From Rickettsiales bacterium (GTDB taxonomy: Bacteria; Pseudomonadota; Alphaproteobacteria; Rickettsiales; CANDYO01), in contig JBASGW010000059.1 of NCBI GenBank assembly GCA_049653745.1, forward strand, positions 19,236 through 83,235: a DNA stretch of 64,000 nucleotides. The letters are read 5' to 3'. How positions within the stretch are numbered: the stretch's first letter is position 1; every line of letters begins with the position of its first letter. The position numbers were made by a program, and so were the translations under genes. Shown here one piece after another: positions 34,124-41,468 of this stretch. A model generated the notes under the pieces. It was not told where the DNA came from. It worked only from the letters and a program-made list of their open reading frames with translations, and did not search any database.

Positions 34124-34726
34124 TTAAGAAGATTTTTCAGCGTCTGCTGATTCTTCAGATGATGATTTTACTGCAACTAAAGCTACAATCGTAGTGTCTA
34201 GATCCATTTTAGTTTCAATGCCTTCAGGAAGCTTTACATCGCTCAAGTGAATGCTTTGTCCAGAAACTAAATGTTCTATATCAATTTCAATGCATTCAGG
34301 AATGTTATCTGGTAAGCAACATATTTCTAAATTATGGCGAGTAATATTTAAGATACCACCTGCTTTTATACCAACACATTTAGATTCATTGATAAAATGC
34401 AATGTAACATTGACGGTAATTTTTTCATTTAAATCTACATGAATAAAATCCATATGTTCGATTTCATCAGTTACTGGATGAAGTTGTATAGCTTTTGGTA
34501 AAACTCTATACTTAGTATTACCCACCTTGATATCAAACATATGAGACAAGAAACCTTGTTTGCGATATTCTAAGGTAAGCTCTTTGTAAGGAAGAGCAAT
34601 TAAAACTTGTTCTTTGCCGCCACCATAGATGATTGCTGGAACCATATTGTTCATTCTTACAGCTCTTGCGCCACCAGTTCCAACGCGCAATCTTTCTTGT
34701 GCATCAAGTGAGTGAATTTTTGACAT
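34124..34726 (-). CDS. rplY: 50S ribosomal protein L25 / general stress protein Ctc
   Basis: RVGTGGARAVRMNNMVPAIIYGGGKEQV...LHPVTDEIEHMDF. The likely start is MSKIHSL (ATG rc at 34724-34726), preceded by AGGAAAG. The track ORF extends 20 codons further upstream. Confidence 0.9.
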   Translation of the reverse strand: MSKIHSLDAQERLRVGTGGARAVRMNNMVPAIIYGGGKEQVLIALPYKELTLEYRKQGFLSHMFDIKVGNTKYRVLPKAIQLHPVTDEIEHMDFIHVDLNEKITVNVTLHFINESKCVGIKAGGILNITRHNLEICCLPDNIPECIEIDIEHLVSGQSIHLSDVKLPEGIETKMDLDTTIVALVAVKSSSEESADAEKSS

Positions 34727-34797
34727 TTTCTTCTTTCCTATTTTGTTTATCGGCTTTATATTACATAAAGTTAACTTGAGAGTCAATAAAATATCAT

Positions 34798-35361
34798 ATG
34801 AATCATAAAATTATTGTTGGAATAGATGAGGCGGGAAGGGGGCCATTAGCTGGTCCTGTAGTTGCGGCTGCAGTAATAATGCCCATTACAATAGAAGAAG
34901 TGAAAGATTCTAAAAAGTTATCCGCAATTAAAAGAGAAAAATTATTTGAACAAATTATAAAACTAAGTAAGTATGGAATAGGTATTGCCTCGGTTGAAGA
35001 AGTGGATGAAATTAATATTTTGCAAGCTACAATGCTTGCAATGAAAAGATCTTATGAGCAGTTGAATCTTATAGCTGATTTAGTTTTAATTGACGGAAAT
35101 AAAGCTCCAAAGTTAAATTGTATAGATTTTCAAACAATAATAAAAGGAGATGATTTAGTTCCGATTATTTCCACTGCCTCAATTCTTGCAAAAGTCACTA
35201 GAGACAGGTTGATGAATGAATTAGATAAAGAATATCCACAATATTTATGGTCTAAAAATTCTGGTTATGGAACCAAAGAACATTTAGAGGCTATCAAAAA
35301 ATATGGCATCACTAAACATCATCGATTAACTTTTGCTCCAATTAAAAACTGTTTAACTTAG
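34798..35361 (+). CDS. rnhB: Ribonuclease HII
   Basis: VGIDEAGRGPLAGPVVAAAV, DSKKLS and SKNSGYGTKEHLEAIKKYG. Confidence 0.95.
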   Translation: MNHKIIVGIDEAGRGPLAGPVVAAAVIMPITIEEVKDSKKLSAIKREKLFEQIIKLSKYGIGIASVEEVDEINILQATMLAMKRSYEQLNLIADLVLIDGNKAPKLNCIDFQTIIKGDDLVPIISTASILAKVTRDRLMNELDKEYPQYLWSKNSGYGTKEHLEAIKKYGITKHHRLTFAPIKNCLT

Positions 35362-35362
35362 C

Positions 35363-36145
35363 TTAAAAGGGAGAAACTTCGATATTATTTACATTATTTT
35401 TTATGGATAAATAATGATTAACCGGAAGTTCGCACCATTCATTCACATGGTCATCTAAAGGCTCTGATGCTATTATAAATGATTTGTCATTCCTTTTTAA
35501 ATAACTAAGCGATAATATTTTACTGTCTTTGCTGGAAAACCTAGTAGCTATCATTTCTTTGCCATTAGTAATAACTATATTAAGACGAGAAGAATCTGCT
35601 TCATCTTGAGCATTATTTATCCATTCAAAAGCCTTTTTAATAGCTTCTGCAAGAGGCATTCCAGAGCCAGAATGAACATATTCCATAATTAAAAAGAATA
35701 AACATTCAGAATCGGTATTACCTTTTATTGATAGAAAAAATTCATCAGATAATTGCTCCATTAGTGAGCGTCTTATTTTATTAAAATTATCTATTGTTCC
35801 GTTATGAACCATTGTATATTCTTTATAAAAAAATGGATGACAATTTCTATTACTAACATCACCAATGGTTGATGCTCTAATGTGACCCATAAAACATTTA
35901 GATTCTATAGTTTTAGAAAGACTTATTAAATTACTATCATTCCATGCTGGTTGAATTGATTTAAAAATAGCGGGTTCGTTATTTACTTTGAAGTTATACC
36001 AAGCCATTCCAAAACCATCAGCGTTAACTCTGTGTTGATCATTATGTGCACTTTTGCTTTGTTTAACTAATGAATTTTTAGGATTAACTAAAAGATTAGC
36101 TATCAAGAGAGCTTCTTCCCCAATATATGCAACAAATCTACACAT
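35363..36145 (-). CDS. Class II (Ntn, N-terminal Cys) glutamine amidotransferase, EgtC/YafJ-like
   Basis: The true start is most likely MCRFVAYIGEE (ATG rc 36143-36145), giving the obligatory Met-Cys N-terminus. Motifs NADGFGMAWY, PAWNDSNL, GHIRASTIG..NRNCHPF, VHNGTI and GNTDSE. The start overlaps the stop of the upstream ATP-grasp gene (TAATG). Confidence 0.8.
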   Translation of the reverse strand: MCRFVAYIGEEALLIANLLVNPKNSLVKQSKSAHNDQHRVNADGFGMAWYNFKVNNEPAIFKSIQPAWNDSNLISLSKTIESKCFMGHIRASTIGDVSNRNCHPFFYKEYTMVHNGTIDNFNKIRRSLMEQLSDEFFLSIKGNTDSECLFFLIMEYVHSGSGMPLAEAIKKAFEWINNAQDEADSSRLNIVITNGKEMIATRFSSKDSKILSLSYLKRNDKSFIIASEPLDDHVNEWCELPVNHYLSIKNNVNNIEVSPF

Positions 36146-37062
36146 TAAAATGACTCCAAATTTAATCCAAGCCTTACACAAATAAAATCTAAAATACTTT
36201 CTGCTATATTTTTACCCATAACTTTCTCCATCCCAATGAATCCAGGGGCTGAATTTGCTTCACAAATCTTAAATCCATCTTTATCAAATAATAAATCTAC
36301 ACCCGCAATATCTAATTTTAATAGCTTTGCAGTTTCTAGAGCTAGCCATTCTATTTCTGGCGTAAGCGGATAAGTATTAACTTCTGCCCCTTTTGAAAAA
36401 TTAGCCTTAAAACTATTTTGTGAGGATCTATGCATACAACCAATTACTTTTCCTCCAACTACAAACACTCTTAAATCTTGACCTTTACTTTCTGATATAA
36501 ATTCTTGGAGAATTATATTAGCTTTATTATTATTAGTATAAATTAGTTCCATTATATCTATGAATTTATCTTCAGATTCACATAAATATATACCCTGACC
36601 CTGGGTTCCAGATACATTCTTAATTACTAAAGGAAATCCTATCTCTCTTTTTACAACATTAATATTTACAGGAAATTTAGCTAACATTGTATTAGGGGTG
36701 GCTAACTTGCTATTAGCTAGGCGTTGATGCATGTATAATTTATCTTTTACTGAATATATTGAGTCTGCATTATTACATATATAAATTCCCATATATTCTA
36801 ATTGTCTTAGTATAGAAAATGCATAGAAAGTTGTGTGAGATCCCATTCTAGGTATAACAAAATCAGGCAAAGGAATAGGTTCATCATCCACTAATATAGA
36901 TGTGTTACTTTTATTTGTAACAATTAATTCAAATTGCTCTGGAGCAATTACTTTTAATTTTATATTTCTAGATTTAGCAGCTTCTAGTAATCTTAAAACG
37001 CTATAATCCTCTTGCGTTAATAATTCCTCCCTTCTGGGAAATAATATTATACCTGTAATCAC
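36145..37062 (-). CDS. RimK-family ATP-grasp alpha-L-glutamate ligase
   Basis: Colinear with E. coli RimK as I recall it: DFVIPRMGSHTTFYAFSILRQLEYMG, KDKLYMHQRLA, FPLVIKNVSGTQGQGIYL, ILQEFISESKGQDLRVFVVGG, FKANFSKGA and IAGVDLLF...ICEANSAPG. Confidence 0.85.
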   Translation of the reverse strand: MITGIILFPRREELLTQEDYSVLRLLEAAKSRNIKLKVIAPEQFELIVTNKSNTSILVDDEPIPLPDFVIPRMGSHTTFYAFSILRQLEYMGIYICNNADSIYSVKDKLYMHQRLANSKLATPNTMLAKFPVNINVVKREIGFPLVIKNVSGTQGQGIYLCESEDKFIDIMELIYTNNNKANIILQEFISESKGQDLRVFVVGGKVIGCMHRSSQNSFKANFSKGAEVNTYPLTPEIEWLALETAKLLKLDIAGVDLLFDKDGFKICEANSAPGFIGMEKVMGKNIAESILDFICVRLGLNLESF

Positions 37063-37305
37063 AAAACACTCACTATAAGAAAATGAAAAACTAAATAACC
37101 ATAAAAAAATTGAATAAACATAGGTCTATTTCAAATATTGAAAATATATAAAAGTCATTGATTTGTATAATAATATCTATGCTATATCAAAAAATATTTT
37201 TTATAGATATAAAACTCATGAAATATAGAACTTGTATTTTAAGTGAATAGGGGTGGAAGTAACTGTAGAATTTCTTAATAGCAATCTGTTTTTTCATATA
37301 AAAAA

Positions 37306-37881
37306 TTAAAGAGCCCTTTCATTTTTAGATTTGCTTCCAACGCCATAGTGATTAAGCACTTTATTTGTTTCACTTTTACTTAAACGTTCTTCAATGCCTA
37401 AGAATTTTCTTCTCATTTGATCAATAGAATTTCTATTTTCGATTATATGTTTATGAATTTCTTCTCCATTTTTTAGTGTTTTTAGATCTGATAAAGTTAT
37501 ATGATTTTTATTAGTCTCTCTTGTTTTCAAAGTTTCTACTAAATTTTGCGCTGCCTTTTGATGTTCAGCTTCTTGTTGTTCTTTTTTATTTTGCATTGAT
37601 AAAATTTTTTCAACATCAGATTTAACACGTTTTGCTAATTCTTCAGCATAATGTTTTTCAAGGTTATTAAGTTTTTCTTTATAGTCTGTTTTTTCTTTTT
37701 CAGAAAGATTTCCTAGGAATTCTGAATTATTACCCTCTCTCATAACTAGTAATTCATCTGAAGGGTAAAGTTTGTCGCTTAATTTTCTTTTATTCTGAGA
37801 TTCAACCATAATTTCCCAGGCTAGAAGATCTTGAGCCATTTTTTCTTCTTGTTCTTTATTTTTAGACATATTTTCTCTCAT
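37306..37881 (-). CDS. Hypothetical charged coiled-coil protein
   Basis: 191 aa, K/E/Q-rich, no TM or signal peptide. No family recognised. Confidence 0.45.
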   Translation of the reverse strand: MRENMSKNKEQEEKMAQDLLAWEIMVESQNKRKLSDKLYPSDELLVMREGNNSEFLGNLSEKEKTDYKEKLNNLEKHYAEELAKRVKSDVEKILSMQNKKEQQEAEHQKAAQNLVETLKTRETNKNHITLSDLKTLKNGEEIHKHIIENRNSIDQMRRKFLGIEERLSKSETNKVLNHYGVGSKSKNERAL

Positions 37882-37991
37882 TTTTTAAGTTTTAAGTTTA
37901 TTATATATATATTCAACCTTTAATAAATATCTCTTTTATTATTATTAATTGACGCAATTTTATAGTTATGTTATTGATCTGGTTATATATA

Positions 37992-38142
37992 TTTTTTCAG
38001 GGGTGGGTGAAATTCCCCATCGGCGGTATAAACATAGTTAATTGTTTGAGCCCGCGAGCGCTTATTTTTAAATATAAAAGTAAGGTCAGCAGATCTGGTT
38101 AAAATCCAGAGCCGACGGTTATAGTCCGGATGAAAGAAAAAA
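37992..38142 (+). promoter_or_regulatory. FMN riboswitch (RFN element) upstream of ribD
   Basis: TTTTTTCAGGGGTGGGTGAAATTCCCCATCGGCGGTA...AGCCCGCGAGCG...GGTCAGCAGATCTGGTTAAAATCCAGAGCCGACGGTTATAGTCCGGATGAAAGAAAAAA. All conserved RFN blocks are present and the P1 pairing is TTTTTTC/GAAAAAA. Confidence 0.93.
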
Positions 38143-38233
38143 ATTAAAATTGCTACATGCTAGCCGTTGTGGTTTATGCGTGGGGTAAATTTTATCTTTT
38201 TCCTCTGTTGTGGGCTTAACAAGCGAGTTAATT

Positions 38234-39307
38234 ATGCAACCAGAGAACCTAGAATTAAATCAAATTATTAAAAGCCCAATGAATCTTGCCCTACAATTAG
38301 CAGAGCTTGGAAAGAATACTGTCTCACCTAATCCTATGGTTGGTGCTGTTCTTGTGCAAAATGACAGACTGGTTGGTTATGGTTATCATCTTTATAAAGG
38401 TGATGATCATGCTGAAATAAAAGCAATCAGAATGGCTGGTTTATCTGCTAAAAATTCTAAGTTATACCTAAATCTTGAGCCATGCTGTCATCATGGCCTT
38501 ACAGCTCCTTGCGTTGATCAAATTATTAAAGCTGGTATAATTGAGGTGCATTTTTCTTCTCTAGATCCAAATCCAATAGTTTATGGCAAATCTACTCAGG
38601 CTCTAAAACAAGCAGGTATTAAAGTTTTTATAGGTCAATTAAAGGAAGCAGCAGAGCAGCTAAATGAAATTTTTTATCATTACATGAAATATAAGAAACC
38701 ATTTGTGATTGCAAAATGGGCTATGACCATGGATGGAAAAATAGCTACAGCTAACGATTCTCAATGGATCACAAGTGAAAAATCAAGAGAACATGTGCAT
38801 ACCCTAAGAAATTCTGTGGATGCTATTTTAATAGGGTCTCGCACCGCAATTCAAGATAATCCAATCCTTAATGTTCGTATAGATAATTTAGTAAAAATAA
38901 GGCAGCCACTCAAGTTTATTATTGGAAGTGATTTGCATGCATTACCGAAGGATTTAAATATATTCAAAATCAATCCTGAAAAAACTCATCTTATTAATTC
39001 TGATGATAATTTTGATCTAAACGCATTGCTAATTAAGATGGCAGATATTGGAGTGACAAGTTTATTAATTGAAGGAGGGGGATATACTTTATCAAAATTT
39101 TTACAGGCTAATTTAATAGATAAATTTTATTGTTATATAGCACCAAAATTTATTGGAGGAGAAAAGTCAATTTCTCCATTTAGTCAAGATATAGGAGTGA
39201 ATTTTATTAAAGATGCAAAAAAAGCTGAAGTTAAAAAAATAGAGCTCATTGGCGAAGATATTTTAATTCAAGGAAATTTTAGGAGAAAAAAATGTTTACC
39301 GGAATAG
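38234..39307 (+). CDS. ribD: Bifunctional riboflavin biosynthesis protein RibD (deaminase/reductase)
   Basis: PNPMVGAVLV, HAEIKAI and LEPCCHHGLTAPC (CDA zinc motif), plus the reductase half MTMDGKIAT...LLIEGGG. The track ORF starts at GTG 38210. ATG 38234 is the first ATG and has a weak SD, so the start is uncertain. Confidence 0.92.
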   Translation: MQPENLELNQIIKSPMNLALQLAELGKNTVSPNPMVGAVLVQNDRLVGYGYHLYKGDDHAEIKAIRMAGLSAKNSKLYLNLEPCCHHGLTAPCVDQIIKAGIIEVHFSSLDPNPIVYGKSTQALKQAGIKVFIGQLKEAAEQLNEIFYHYMKYKKPFVIAKWAMTMDGKIATANDSQWITSEKSREHVHTLRNSVDAILIGSRTAIQDNPILNVRIDNLVKIRQPLKFIIGSDLHALPKDLNIFKINPEKTHLINSDDNFDLNALLIKMADIGVTSLLIEGGGYTLSKFLQANLIDKFYCYIAPKFIGGEKSISPFSQDIGVNFIKDAKKAEVKKIELIGEDILIQGNFRRKKCLPE

Positions 39308-39876
39308 TAGAGTTTTTAGGTGAAGTTAAGGAAATTAAAATAAAGGAGTTTGATCGAGATTTTATAATTTTTCATCAAGAAGATATCAAACTTAAAATAG
39401 GAGACAGCATTGCAGTAAACGGAGTTTGTCTTACGGTAAGAGAGTTATGCGACAATAAATTTACAGTATCAGCTGGATATGAAACACTTAAATTAACTAA
39501 CTTAAGTAAAATTGAGTTAAATGACCAAGTAAATCTAGAATGCTCTTTATCCCTTGAGAAACCTCTTGGAGGGCATTTAGTTCAAGGGCATATCGCTAAT
39601 ACAAGTAATATTATTAGCAAAACTAATGCTGGTGAATCAATATATTTTAAATTCTCAAAACCTTTAGAGCTTAAAAATTATATAGTTAAAAAGGGCTATA
39701 TTGCTATAGATGGAATGAGTCTAACAATTTGTGATGAGGGGAAAGATTGGTTTGAAATAATGCTTATTCCACATACTTTAAGTGTAACAATAGCTAAGAA
39801 TTATAAGGTAGGAAGTTTAGTAAATATTGAAGTAGATATATTTGCTCGTTACATGGAGAAGTTATATGAAAAATAA
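39292..39876 (+). CDS. ribE: Riboflavin synthase
   Basis: MFTGIVE..., GDSIAVNGVCLTV and IAIDGMSLTI (duplicated lumazine-binding repeats). Confidence 0.93.
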   Translation: MFTGIVEFLGEVKEIKIKEFDRDFIIFHQEDIKLKIGDSIAVNGVCLTVRELCDNKFTVSAGYETLKLTNLSKIELNDQVNLECSLSLEKPLGGHLVQGHIANTSNIISKTNAGESIYFKFSKPLELKNYIVKKGYIAIDGMSLTICDEGKDWFEIMLIPHTLSVTIAKNYKVGSLVNIEVDIFARYMEKLYEK

Positions 39877-40468
39877 TATTCTTAAAGCCATTGAAGATTT
39901 AAAAGATGGAAAAATGATTATTGTAACTGATGACGTAAACCGAGAAAATGAGGGTGATATTATAGTACTTGCAGAGAAAGTTACTGAAGAAACAATATCA
40001 TTTATAATCAAAAAGGCATCTGGACTAATTTGTTTAGCAATTGACAGTGAGCTAGCTAAAAAATTAGATCTTAAATTAATGGTAGAAAATAATCAAGAAT
40101 CTATGAGAACAGCTTTTACAGTTAGTATTGATTCAAGACATGGAATTACAACTGGAATATCTGCTTTTGATAGGGCGAAAACAATACTAGATGCAGTAAG
40201 CGTTAATGCAAAAGCAACTGACTTAGTTAGACCTGGGCATATTTTTCCGTTAATTGCTAAAGATGGAGGACTTTTTGAGAGAAGAGGGCATACCGAAGCA
40301 AGCGTTGAGTTAGCTAAACTCTCAGGTTTTAAAGCTGCTGCAGTTATTTGTGAAATCATAGGTGATGATGGAAAAATGCTAAGAGGAAAAGAATTAAAAG
40401 AATTTGCAGCTCTCTATAAGTTAACATTAGTAAGTATCGATTCAATAGTAGATTTTTTAAAAGGATAA
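39866..40468 (+). CDS. ribB: 3,4-dihydroxy-2-butanone-4-phosphate synthase (monofunctional)
   Basis: [22 protein letters not shown] and [16 protein letters not shown]. The likely start is ATG 39866 after GGAGAAG, overlapping the ribE end. It is not fused to ribA. Confidence 0.9.
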
Positions 40469-40471
40469 AGT

Positions 40472-41053
40472 ATGTTTTCAGACATAATTAATTTAGCTAC
40501 TGATTTTGGAATATTTAAATGTTTTGTAGTTAAGGAAGGATATAAAGAACATTTAGTTCTTTTTAAAGGAAATATTGAAGGTGAAGAATGCTTTGTTAGA
40601 GTTCATTCAGAATGTATTACTGGTGATTTATTTAGATCAAAAAGATGCGATTGCGGATATCAATTACAATATTCACTAAATCTTATTTCTAATAAAGGAG
40701 GAGTATTAATATACTTGCGTCAAGAGGGAAGAGATATAGGGTTATTTAATAAAATAAAAGCTTATAAAATGCAAGATAATGGATTTGATACTGTTGAAGC
40801 AAATATTAATCTTGGATTGCCTATTGATGCACGACATTATGATATTGCAATAAAAATTTTAGAGAAGCTTAACCCCTCTAAAATTAAGCTTTTTACTAAT
40901 AATCCAGAAAAAATTAAGGCATTATATTCTTCTCTTAAGAAAATTTCTATTGAAAGAATAGCCATAAATTCACCATTTGAACCATTAAACGCAAATTATT
41001 TAGCTACAAAAGCTAAAAAAATGAATCATTTAATAGGAGATATCCATGACTAA
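40472..41053 (+). CDS. ribA: GTP cyclohydrolase II (monofunctional)
   Basis: VRVHSECITGDLFRSKRCDCGYQL and YLRQEGRDIGL. Confidence 0.92.
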   Translation: MFSDIINLATDFGIFKCFVVKEGYKEHLVLFKGNIEGEECFVRVHSECITGDLFRSKRCDCGYQLQYSLNLISNKGGVLIYLRQEGRDIGLFNKIKAYKMQDNGFDTVEANINLGLPIDARHYDIAIKILEKLNPSKIKLFTNNPEKIKALYSSLKKISIERIAINSPFEPLNANYLATKAKKMNHLIGDIHD

Positions 41054-41468
41054 AATAGCAATTATAGTTAGTAAATTTAATCAAGAAATAACTAATCTTA
41101 TGGAAAAAAATGCAGTTGAAAGAGCAGAGGAATTAGGAGTTTTTTCTAAGATATATAGAGTTCCAGGAGTAGTAGAAATTCCTATTATTGCAAAAAAATT
41201 AGCTTTAAAGAATGATTTTGACGCTATAGTTGCTCTAGGAGCTGTAATACGTGGAGAAACAACTCATTATGATTATGTTTGTAATCAAGTAAGTTATGGC
41301 TGCCAAAAAATAGCGTTAACTTATGACATTCCAATAATATTTGGAATATTAACCTGCGAAACTGAACTTCAAGCATATGATAGAATAGGTGGCAAGATGG
41401 GAAATAAACCAAAAGATATGATAGATACTGCTATTGAGATGATAAATTTAATAAAGGAAATAGATTAA
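41046..41468 (+). CDS. ribH: 6,7-dimethyl-8-ribityllumazine synthase
   Basis: IAIIVSKFN, VPGVVEIP, ALGAVIRGETTHYDYV and FGILT. Confidence 0.92.
   Translation: MTKIAIIVSKFNQEITNLMEKNAVERAEELGVFSKIYRVPGVVEIPIIAKKLALKNDFDAIVALGAVIRGETTHYDYVCNQVSYGCQKIALTYDIPIIFGILTCETELQAYDRIGGKMGNKPKDMIDTAIEMINLIKEID

Follow-up and report, generated by a model that had tools for sequence, protein, structure and literature searches.

Organization of the locus

The present analysis concerns two adjacent genes of a Rickettsiales bacterium (assembly GCA_049653745.1), located in a stretch of 64,000 nucleotides (nt) of contig JBASGW010000059.1 (positions 19,236 to 83,235), which is called the window in the following. 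Both genes lie on the minus strand. The first is an open reading frame (ORF) with a GTG start (36145-37062, -), coding for a RimK-family ATP-grasp alpha-L-glutamate ligase of 305 amino acids (aa; MGB4191839.1 at NCBI). The second (35363-36145, -) codes for a protein of 260 aa with a Met-Cys start (MGB4191838.1). It has the fold of a stand-alone class II amidotransferase with an N-terminal nucleophile (Ntn) cysteine. The two proteins, whose NCBI names are generic, are termed ligase and hydrolase here.

The genes meet in a TAATG junction (36143-36147, -), in which the stop codon TAA of the ligase (36147-36145) and the start codon ATG of the hydrolase (36145-36143) share one base. This coupling had been proposed in a sequence-only reading of the window and can be read directly from the DNA. 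The same reading had placed the real start of the amidotransferase at a Met-Cys 12 codons inside the ORF. The ORF obtained mechanically spans 35363-36181 and begins with a TTG 12 codons before the ATG, and translation from the ATG gives 260 aa beginning with MCRFVAYIG. Residues 1-3 are Met-Cys-Arg in all 20 aligned hydrolase homologues. The NCBI record (source 'MAG: Rickettsiales bacterium', where MAG stands for metagenome-assembled genome) likewise has 260 aa and is 100% identical. Because of the invariant Met-Cys-Arg and the length of the public record, the ATG is the real start, and Cys2 is present in the protein that begins there.

The pair forms its own minus-strand unit, as had been suggested. 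On its downstream side lies a convergent gene for RNase HII (34798-35361, +; 245.9 bits, cut-off 167), the end of which (35361) is one base away from the end of the hydrolase ORF (35363). Upstream of the ligase, an AT-rich spacer of 243 nt (37063-37305, -) presumably contains the promoter region of the pair. The promoter scan reported no promoter-like match within this spacer, consensus matches for promoters and terminators in the region were not above those in shuffled sequences (19 found, 19.9 expected), and the spacer matched no Rfam family. The ORF directly upstream of the ligase (37306-37881, -) codes for a Lys/Glu-rich protein of 191 aa; NCBIfam gave no match to it, and the 80 related genome loci contain no relative. 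The guanine-plus-cytosine (GC) content of the pair is 28-31% and equals that of the surroundings. A recent acquisition of the pair in this genome was therefore ruled out.

The ligase forms a separate branch of the RimK family

The ligase contains both a pre-ATP-grasp domain (Pfam Rimk_N, PF18030; 69 bits, cut-off 26.4) and an ATP-grasp domain (Pfam RimK, PF08443; 157.7 bits, cut-off 21). With 229.6 bits against a cut-off of 143.4 it is a member of the NCBIfam family rimK_fam (TIGR00768). It stays far below the cut-off of the equivalog model for the S6 ligase RimK (NF007764; 164.7 bits, cut-off 331) and also below those for MptN (161.2 bits, cut-off 350), LysX (138.4 bits, cut-off 275.6), CofF (98.4 bits, cut-off 300) and GshB (72.2 bits, cut-off 272). 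By the NCBI equivalog, it is thus not an ordinary S6-modifying RimK. The best matches in the PDB are the RimK proteins of Pseudomonas (163.5 bits) and Escherichia coli (145.7 bits), followed by ArgX/LysX with 55-61 bits. The ligase is 34% (33-35%) identical to E. coli RimK, whereas the E. coli and Pseudomonas enzymes share 65% identity (PMC10092738).

The nucleotide-binding, Mg-binding and catalytic residues of ATP-grasp enzymes are present. The catalytic and nucleotide-binding residues of RimK that are kept in the ligase comprise R72, K148, E187, R198, F218, N221, D256, E268 and N270. In the alignment with E. coli RimK, K148, E187, I189, R198 and F218 correspond to K141, E178, I180, R189 and F210, and N221, D256, E268 and N270 correspond to N213, D248, E260 and N262. 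Among 48 members of the subfamily, position 187 is Glu in 44 and position 189 is Ile in 36, and the other aligned site residues are invariant. The N-terminal loop differs. S7 and R8 in this loop of P. aeruginosa RimK contact the poly-Glu chain (PMC10092738), and in the ligase both are replaced and the loop carries an insertion of 6 residues. Three further poly-Glu contacts of the P. aeruginosa enzyme, R64, R189 and N262, are kept as R72, R198 and N270. The AlphaFold model of the ligase was not used, its ATP-binding lid being of low confidence (predicted local distance difference test, pLDDT, 70.2).

In a neighbour-joining tree rooted on canonical RimK, the subfamily of the ligase forms a long separate branch. 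Its three parts are an intracellular clade, in which the ligase is mostly paired, one of free-living organisms and one of viruses. By its sequence, the ligase belongs to a RimK-family subfamily distinct from the S6-modifying RimK. The earlier label 'RimK-type' is therefore right for the family, but does not extend to canonical S6 RimK.

The hydrolase has an intact class II amidotransferase site

The hydrolase matches Pfam GATase_4 with 69 bits and marginally misses the cut-off of the EgtC equivalog TIGR03442 (216.8 bits, cut-off 218.65), on which the hydrolase partners of the pair in other lineages reach 186-190 bits. It aligns end to end with the uncharacterized SPO2029 of Ruegeria (Silicibacter) pomeroyi (PDB 3MDN; 143.8 bits). 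The match to the solved EgtC of Mycobacterium smegmatis (70 bits) is restricted to the N-terminal half, with the middle region unaligned. The AlphaFold model (pLDDT 88.8) shows the four-layer alpha-beta-beta-alpha Ntn fold. Template modelling (TM) scores from Foldseek, normalized by the query, are 0.76-0.78 for EgtC, 0.69-0.73 for 3MDN and 0.72 for the glutaminase domain of GlmS; normalized by the target, they reach 0.83-0.89 for EgtC and 3MDN.

In 20 hydrolase homologues M1, C2, R3, H88, R90, S92, T93, N115, G116, T144, D145, S146 and E147 are invariant. The features of class II enzymes are present, namely a Cys after the initiator Met, the Asn-Gly of the oxyanion hole and the substrate-binding Arg and Asp. 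R90, N115, G116 and D145 belong to the part that aligns with GlmS residues 69-154 and presumably correspond to R73, N98, G99 and D123. From what is known of GlmS, we take C2 to be the nucleophile, R90 to bind the alpha-carboxylate, N115-G116 to form the oxyanion hole and D145 to bind the alpha-amino group. Since these residues of a GlmS-type pocket are invariant, the hydrolase is expected to take up glutamine or a gamma-glutamyl group whose alpha-amino and alpha-carboxylate groups are free.

An exhaustive search gave 267 representatives of the hydrolase family at E ≤ 1e-30, including longer eukaryotic proteins. The ten longest relatives (356-590 aa) contain GATase domains only. Six of them were looked up, and two had a named source, one fungal (Umbelopsis nana) and one amoebozoan (Phalansterium). 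The Umbelopsis protein, a 'glutamine amidotransferase subunit', is a full-length homologue with 34% identity over residues 1-248 (E = 4e-54). By its name, it is a presumed orthologue of yeast Dug3p, which together with Dug2p degrades glutathione and other gamma-Glu-X peptides. A function of Dug3p in glutathione degradation has been described (bioRxiv 10.1101/2023.02.02.526638). A Dug2-like gene (WD40 plus M20) was not found among the genes adjoining the pair. Instead of 'EgtC/YafJ-type', the hydrolase is better assigned to the SPO2029/Dug3/EgtC branch of GATase_4.

The pair is conserved in host-associated lineages

For the comparison with other genomes, the best 80 loci of each scan were considered, and the scan with the ligase alignment covered one genome per GTDB species. 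Many of the genomes are MAGs, and taxonomy and lifestyle were taken from the names. Individual loci are designated by L numbers.

In Simkania negevensis the two genes are found in the same order and on the same strand with a gap of 9 nt. In 21 further species genomes, with ligases of the same clade (53-71% identical), the hydrolase lies 6-120 nt downstream of the ligase on the same strand. Including Simkania and the window, 23 of the 30 genomes of the ligase clade have the ligase followed by the hydrolase. They belong to the Chlamydiales, Simkaniaceae, Waddliaceae, Rickettsiaceae, Midichloriaceae/Bandiella and Megaira, to the Thiotrichales/Facilibium, Legionellaceae, Legionellales and Coxiellaceae, and to unnamed alpha- and gammaproteobacterial MAGs. 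In five Bacteroidales/Bacteroidota loci the order is reversed: the hydrolase comes first, and the two genes overlap or abut. Among metagenome contigs with a hydrolase at least 41% identical, the ligase is located directly upstream in 23 of the 28 informative ones, i.e., those with enough upstream DNA to judge. The pairing is thus not confined to the genome analyzed here.

No third gene is conserved beside the pair, including any enzyme that might modify an intermediate, as would be expected of a protect/deprotect pathway, and the flanks vary by genome. Because the two genes adjoin each other again and again, in dozens of genomes whose flanks are unrelated, this is more than a chance arrangement. 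The idea that both genes belong to one conserved functional unit agrees well with this wide distribution, in which the order is kept while the flanks change. A fusion of ligase and hydrolase was not seen among the matches listed in the homologue searches.

Over 21 pairs, the pairwise identities of both proteins correlate (r = 0.74; none of 2000 permutations was as high). The ligase is more conserved, with a mean identity of 63% compared to 51% for the hydrolase. In the neighbour-joining tree, which carries no support values, some gamma- and alphaproteobacterial copies interleave; for instance, L014 (gammaproteobacterial) is sister to L004 (Rickettsiaceae). Such interleaving would fit horizontal transfer among organisms that share protist hosts.

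Neighborhoods of related ligases and hydrolases

More distant relatives of the hydrolase (33-39% identity) are found close to other carboxylate-amine ligases. On a Legionella lytica plasmid, a gene for a YbdK/GCS2-family ligase is divergent to the hydrolase relative. Contig L139 contains a four-gene array (390-4864), which starts with a RimK-like ATP-grasp protein of 528 aa with an N-terminal extension and ends with a 33%-identical hydrolase relative. The two ORFs between them are YbdK/GCS2-like and N-formylglutamate-amidohydrolase-like as assigned by eye. The array has the look of a full set of genes for making and breaking a gamma-glutamyl peptide. In L143 and L163 a GshB-like ORF (by eye) is located near the hydrolase relative on the opposite strand. 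Six metagenome contigs (L130, L147, L153, L155, L157 and L160) carry, on one strand, rimK, a gene for an AstE/AspA-like deacylase, rimB, mscS and a hydrolase relative that is 39% identical to the hydrolase of the window. In the marine-type contig L155 (608-4801), the RimK protein reaches 451.3 bits on NF007764 and is accompanied by a RimB-like retropepsin and an MscS-type channel (by eye). The repeated presence of peptide-bond-forming ligases in these neighborhoods is the strongest ground for assuming that the hydrolase acts on glutamyl amides which are made by, or related to, a ligase. A ligase-plus-hydrolase logic on a glutamyl conjugate, as proposed earlier, remains the best reading in view of these YbdK/GCS2, GshB, RimK and long ATP-grasp neighbors.

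A gene for a major facilitator superfamily (MFS) transporter shares bases with the start of the ligase gene in L019, comes immediately before the ligase in L013 and adjoins the pair in L003. The MFS transporters near the pair are of generic organic-anion types. As a conserved third gene the MFS transporter was rejected, being present at four loci only.

In three loci of the Legionellales/Coxiella type, the gene immediately upstream of the ligase, or of the MFS-ligase unit, codes for a small acidic protein (L019 445-714; L017 5738-6004; L045 3470-3706). The proteins of L019 and L017 are above the cut-off of the PA3496 family, and for that of L045 the link is a tblastn match only. The C-terminus is ...GEE in one copy and different in the others. 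As a carrier or substrate this PA3496-family protein was rejected, given its restriction to three loci and the differing C-termini. No conserved small ORF ending in Glu was found upstream of the ligase.

One gammaproteobacterial MAG (CBDALO01) contains seven near-identical ligase copies (L024-L030). In place of the hydrolase, a Ser/Thr-kinase-like ORF of 241 aa follows each copy. An Rpn/YhgA-type transposase-like ORF (by eye) directly precedes six of the seven copies and lies two genes further upstream in L028. The copies look like a repeated mobile unit. In L013, the ligase and hydrolase are followed by the start of the same kinase-like gene.

Relatives of the ligase are also frequent in viruses. 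IMG/VR contains 313 of them (42-49% identity), located in ordinary phage replication and structural modules. The cultured T4-like cyanophages S-RIM8, S-RIM12, S-RIM32 and S-CAM8 carry relatives with 43-44% identity (records KX349327.1, NC_031235.1, KU686203.1 and KX349286.1), whose annotation as 'ribosomal protein S6 glutaminyl transferase' derives from homology. With an identity of these phage genes to E. coli RimK of about 30-35%, the S6 label is unverified. The hydrolase search in viruses gave two distant matches only, neither of them beside a ligase. PADLOC gave no match, and a role in anti-phage defence was rejected.

Proposed function of the pair

The active sites of both proteins are intact, the genes show tight co-expression signals, the pair is conserved and its two members co-diverge. 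We propose that the pair is a co-expressed, horizontally mobile module of bacteria belonging to host-associated lineages, in whose cytoplasm it handles a small, glutamate-containing compound of the gamma-glutamyl type, and we give this proposal a little less than an even chance. As judged from the conserved catalytic residues, the ligase would convert a carboxylate to an acyl-phosphate at the expense of ATP and join it to the amino group of L-glutamate. In the hydrolase, removal of Met1 would set free Cys2 as the N-terminal nucleophile. The enzyme would then cleave a gamma-glutamyl amide (gamma-Glu-X or glutamine) and release L-glutamate, as do its family members EgtC and yeast Dug3p. Cleavage of a gamma-glutamyl bond is predicted because the pocket for the alpha-amino and alpha-carboxylate groups is intact. 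Glutamate or a glutamyl peptide may thus link the two steps.

Two versions of this scheme can be envisaged. In version (a) the enzymes would make and break one metabolite, the simplest candidate being gamma-Glu-Glu or a gamma-glutamyl peptide similar to it. Within the RimK family, the formation of gamma-glutamyl bonds is known from the ArgX/LysX branch. Version (b) is a salvage route, in which the hydrolase would open a gamma-glutamyl peptide of the host, e.g., glutathione, and the ligase would re-use the glutamate or extend the remaining peptide. A broader proposal describes the cassette as a lifestyle gene set for dwellers in eukaryotic cells, exchanged among Chlamydiae, Rickettsiales, Legionellales and their relatives in the manner of other 'intracellular' genes, which makes and degrades a novel small glutamyl peptide or converts host peptides of the glutathione type into a bacterial product. 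The ligase subfamily, common in marine phages as well, would then have a substrate other than S6. This is possible, although we rather doubt it in this full form.

Several points speak against the proposed module. Versions (a) and (b) cannot be told apart from sequence alone. RimK proper makes alpha-peptide bonds, which should be unfit for a glutamine-type pocket, so a molecule shared by both enzymes needs a ligase that uses the gamma-carboxylate. Unless regulated, a pair for synthesis and hydrolysis would run as a futile cycle. In 7 of the 30 clade genomes the ligase has no hydrolase beside it (a Babelota MAG, L012, L017, L035, L045, L066 and the MAG with seven ligase copies). It is also unpaired in its free-living relatives with 51-54% identity (Pseudoalteromonas, Shewanella, Marinobacterium, Methanosarcinales, Planctomycetes and Clostridia), the Bacteroidales excepted, and the hydrolase is absent beside the ligase in all 80 viral loci examined (L164-L243). 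On metagenome contigs, hydrolases below about 40% identity mostly occur alone. Since both enzymes also occur alone, neither strictly needs the other. The spread of one cassette by transfer could explain much of the conservation, so that the genomes do not count as independent of one another; only a few events are independent, namely the intracellular clade, the Bacteroidales and the case of the rimK operon. The link to MFS transporters is weak as well, with about 25% identity of the proteins at the four loci to the MFS protein of the window, which is encoded 2.6 kb away in another transcription unit.

One alternative is an S6-modifying RimK with the hydrolase as an accessory. The hydrolase would then play a part like that of RimB in Pseudomonas or supply glutamate from glutamine. 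A cycle of ligation and trimming on S6 by RimK and RimB is established (PMC7343187, PMC11957791), the ligase has its best PDB matches in the RimK proteins of Pseudomonas and E. coli, and the three poly-Glu contacts named above are kept. Moreover, the hydrolase relative of the six contigs stands in line with a true rimK array, and the phage homologues bear an S6 label. That label was given by homology only, however, and the ligase scores only half the equivalog cut-off, which the true RimK of L155 exceeds. The identity to E. coli RimK is far below that between the E. coli and Pseudomonas enzymes, the acceptor loop has its insertion and has lost S7/R8, and the branch is long and separate. The pocket of the hydrolase suits a gamma-glutamyl group with free alpha groups and is unsuited to alpha-linked poly-Glu. 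Taken together, we consider a function on S6 unlikely. The gene for S6, rpsF, was not found in the window or in any related locus examined. It is quite improbable, in our view, that the two proteins are the subunits of a glutamine-dependent amidoligase, in which ammonia from the Ntn subunit would amidate an acyl-phosphate on the ATP-grasp subunit, comparable to carbamoyl-phosphate synthetase or MurT/GatD. The one-base overlap here and the short gaps elsewhere, the intact glutamine-binding residues of class II and the co-divergence would all be expected of such an enzyme. Nevertheless, each partner is common alone, which is unusual for obligate subunits. The nearest characterized Ntn relatives are hydrolases (EgtC and Dug3-like proteins) and not synthase-coupled glutaminases, and neither the listed matches nor the ten longest hydrolase relatives show a fusion of the two domains. 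To our knowledge, all characterized enzymes named among the RimK-family matches of the ligase use an amino acid and not ammonia as the nucleophile.

A remnant of ergothioneine biosynthesis would consist of a true EgtC, a distant EgtD-like methyltransferase and the ligase in place of EgtA. It could account for the near miss on TIGR03442, for EgtC as the top fold match of the hydrolase model and for the methyltransferase of the EgtD/EasF family encoded at 972-1988 (-). Yet M. smegmatis EgtC gives a partial, low-scoring sequence match, and the methyltransferase remains far below both cut-offs of its family (93.4 bits against 290.9 for EgtD; 96.1 bits against 205.55 for EasF). None of the 80 related genome loci contains the methyltransferase, a scan of eight window ORFs of 377-515 aa gave no EgtB, and no EgtB-, EgtD- or EgtE-like gene recurs beside the pair. 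The sequence-only reading had noted this methyltransferase and considered a canonical ergothioneine pathway unsupported. The gene does exist and the conclusion stands, while the EgtD identity is weak. The ergothioneine context was rejected, and we give the remnant next to no credence. That the adjacency has no functional meaning and is a frozen accident carried along by horizontal transfer appears very improbable. The cassette of the intracellular clade could have a single origin, and both genes can exist alone, which would be compatible with an accident. The adjacency survives, however, while all flanks change, the pair reappears in reversed order in the Bacteroidales, and relatives of the hydrolase adjoin four other kinds of carboxylate-amine ligase.

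Comparison with known systems

A similar logic is known from RimK-RimB(-RimA) of Pseudomonas, where a RimK-family ligase is co-transcribed with a counteracting hydrolase, so that glutamate is added and removed in a compact cycle (PMC7343187, PMC11957791, PMC10092738). RimB has a retropepsin-like fold, whereas the hydrolase described here has the Cys-Ntn amidotransferase fold. In contrast to Pseudomonas RimK, the ligase is a member of another subfamily, below the equivalog cut-off and with an altered N-terminal loop, and a RimA is missing here. Also, the predicted scissile bond is a gamma-glutamyl bond, while RimK and RimB act on alpha-peptide bonds.

In mycobacterial ergothioneine biosynthesis, the ligase EgtA installs a gamma-glutamyl group, which is removed by EgtC, a stand-alone class II Ntn hydrolase. 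The hydrolase of the pair shares the EgtC fold and nearly reaches the EgtC cut-off of NCBIfam. EgtA has the GCS2 fold, unlike the ATP-grasp ligase here. Furthermore, the pair is not linked to egtB, egtD or egtE, and the solved EgtC is only distantly similar in sequence (70 bits).

Cytoplasmic hydrolases of the GATase family that act on gamma-glutamyl peptides are also known from Dug2p-Dug3p of yeast and from NgtA-Cgc1 of Francisella. Fungal Dug3-like proteins align end to end with the hydrolase. These two systems work without a ligase; Dug3p needs Dug2p, and Cgc1 is a class I GATase. Francisella imports glutathione via the MFS transporter NgtA and cleaves it with the cytoplasmic Cgc1. It is a precedent in a bacterium that lives in the glutathione-rich cytosol of its host. 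Glutathione as the substrate of the hydrolase, by analogy with Dug3p and Cgc1, would be a guess.

In the LysX/ArgX-LysW system, RimK-family ligases make a gamma-glutamyl amide which is hydrolyzed later. No gene for a LysW-like carrier accompanies the pair, and no conserved small ORF that ends in Glu lies upstream. The release in the LysW system is catalyzed by an M20 peptidase, unlike the Ntn hydrolase found here, and the LysX score of the ligase is only half the cut-off.

In the literature searched, we found no paper linking RimK with EgtC, YafJ or a class II amidotransferase; an earlier mention in the amidoligase survey of Iyer et al. (2009) is possible. The pairing of a ligase with a de-glutamylating hydrolase is known from RimK/RimB and EgtA/EgtC. 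New are the combination of folds, an ATP-grasp ligase with a Cys-Ntn hydrolase, and the host-associated distribution. Chlamydiae, rickettsiae and legionellae are obligate or facultative intracellular bacteria with reduced genomes. Because such lineages keep the pair and apparently trade it across phyla, it likely matters for life in the host cytosol. If the hydrolase opens gamma-glutamyl peptides of the host, this would be a second route of cysteine and glutamate salvage, evolutionarily independent of that of Francisella. If the substrate of the ligase is non-ribosomal, a large uncharacterized RimK subfamily needs re-annotation, including hundreds of phage genes for 'S6 glutaminyl transferase'. 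The question of the substrate is directly testable, since culturable carriers such as Facilibium subflavum and Simkania negevensis exist.

Additional features of the window

A flavin mononucleotide (FMN) riboswitch (37989-38145, +; 116.5 bits) is located just beyond the ORF that precedes the ligase. It lies upstream of a run of plus-strand ORFs (38210-41468) which, judged from the translations, resembles a riboflavin operon with a ribD-like gene in first position. An ORF of 332 aa (2190-3188, -) matches LptC over the N-terminal and LptA over the C-terminal half and is an apparent LptC-LptA fusion. A protein of 515 aa (56995-58542, -) shows weak local matches to the Dot/Icm ankyrin effectors AnkY and AnkG of Legionella, which would be consistent with a host-associated lifestyle. 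The ORF of the L25/Ctc protein (34124-34786, -) is given from a TTG, and the family models align from residue 21 (MSKIHSL...). The true start is therefore probably the internal ATG.

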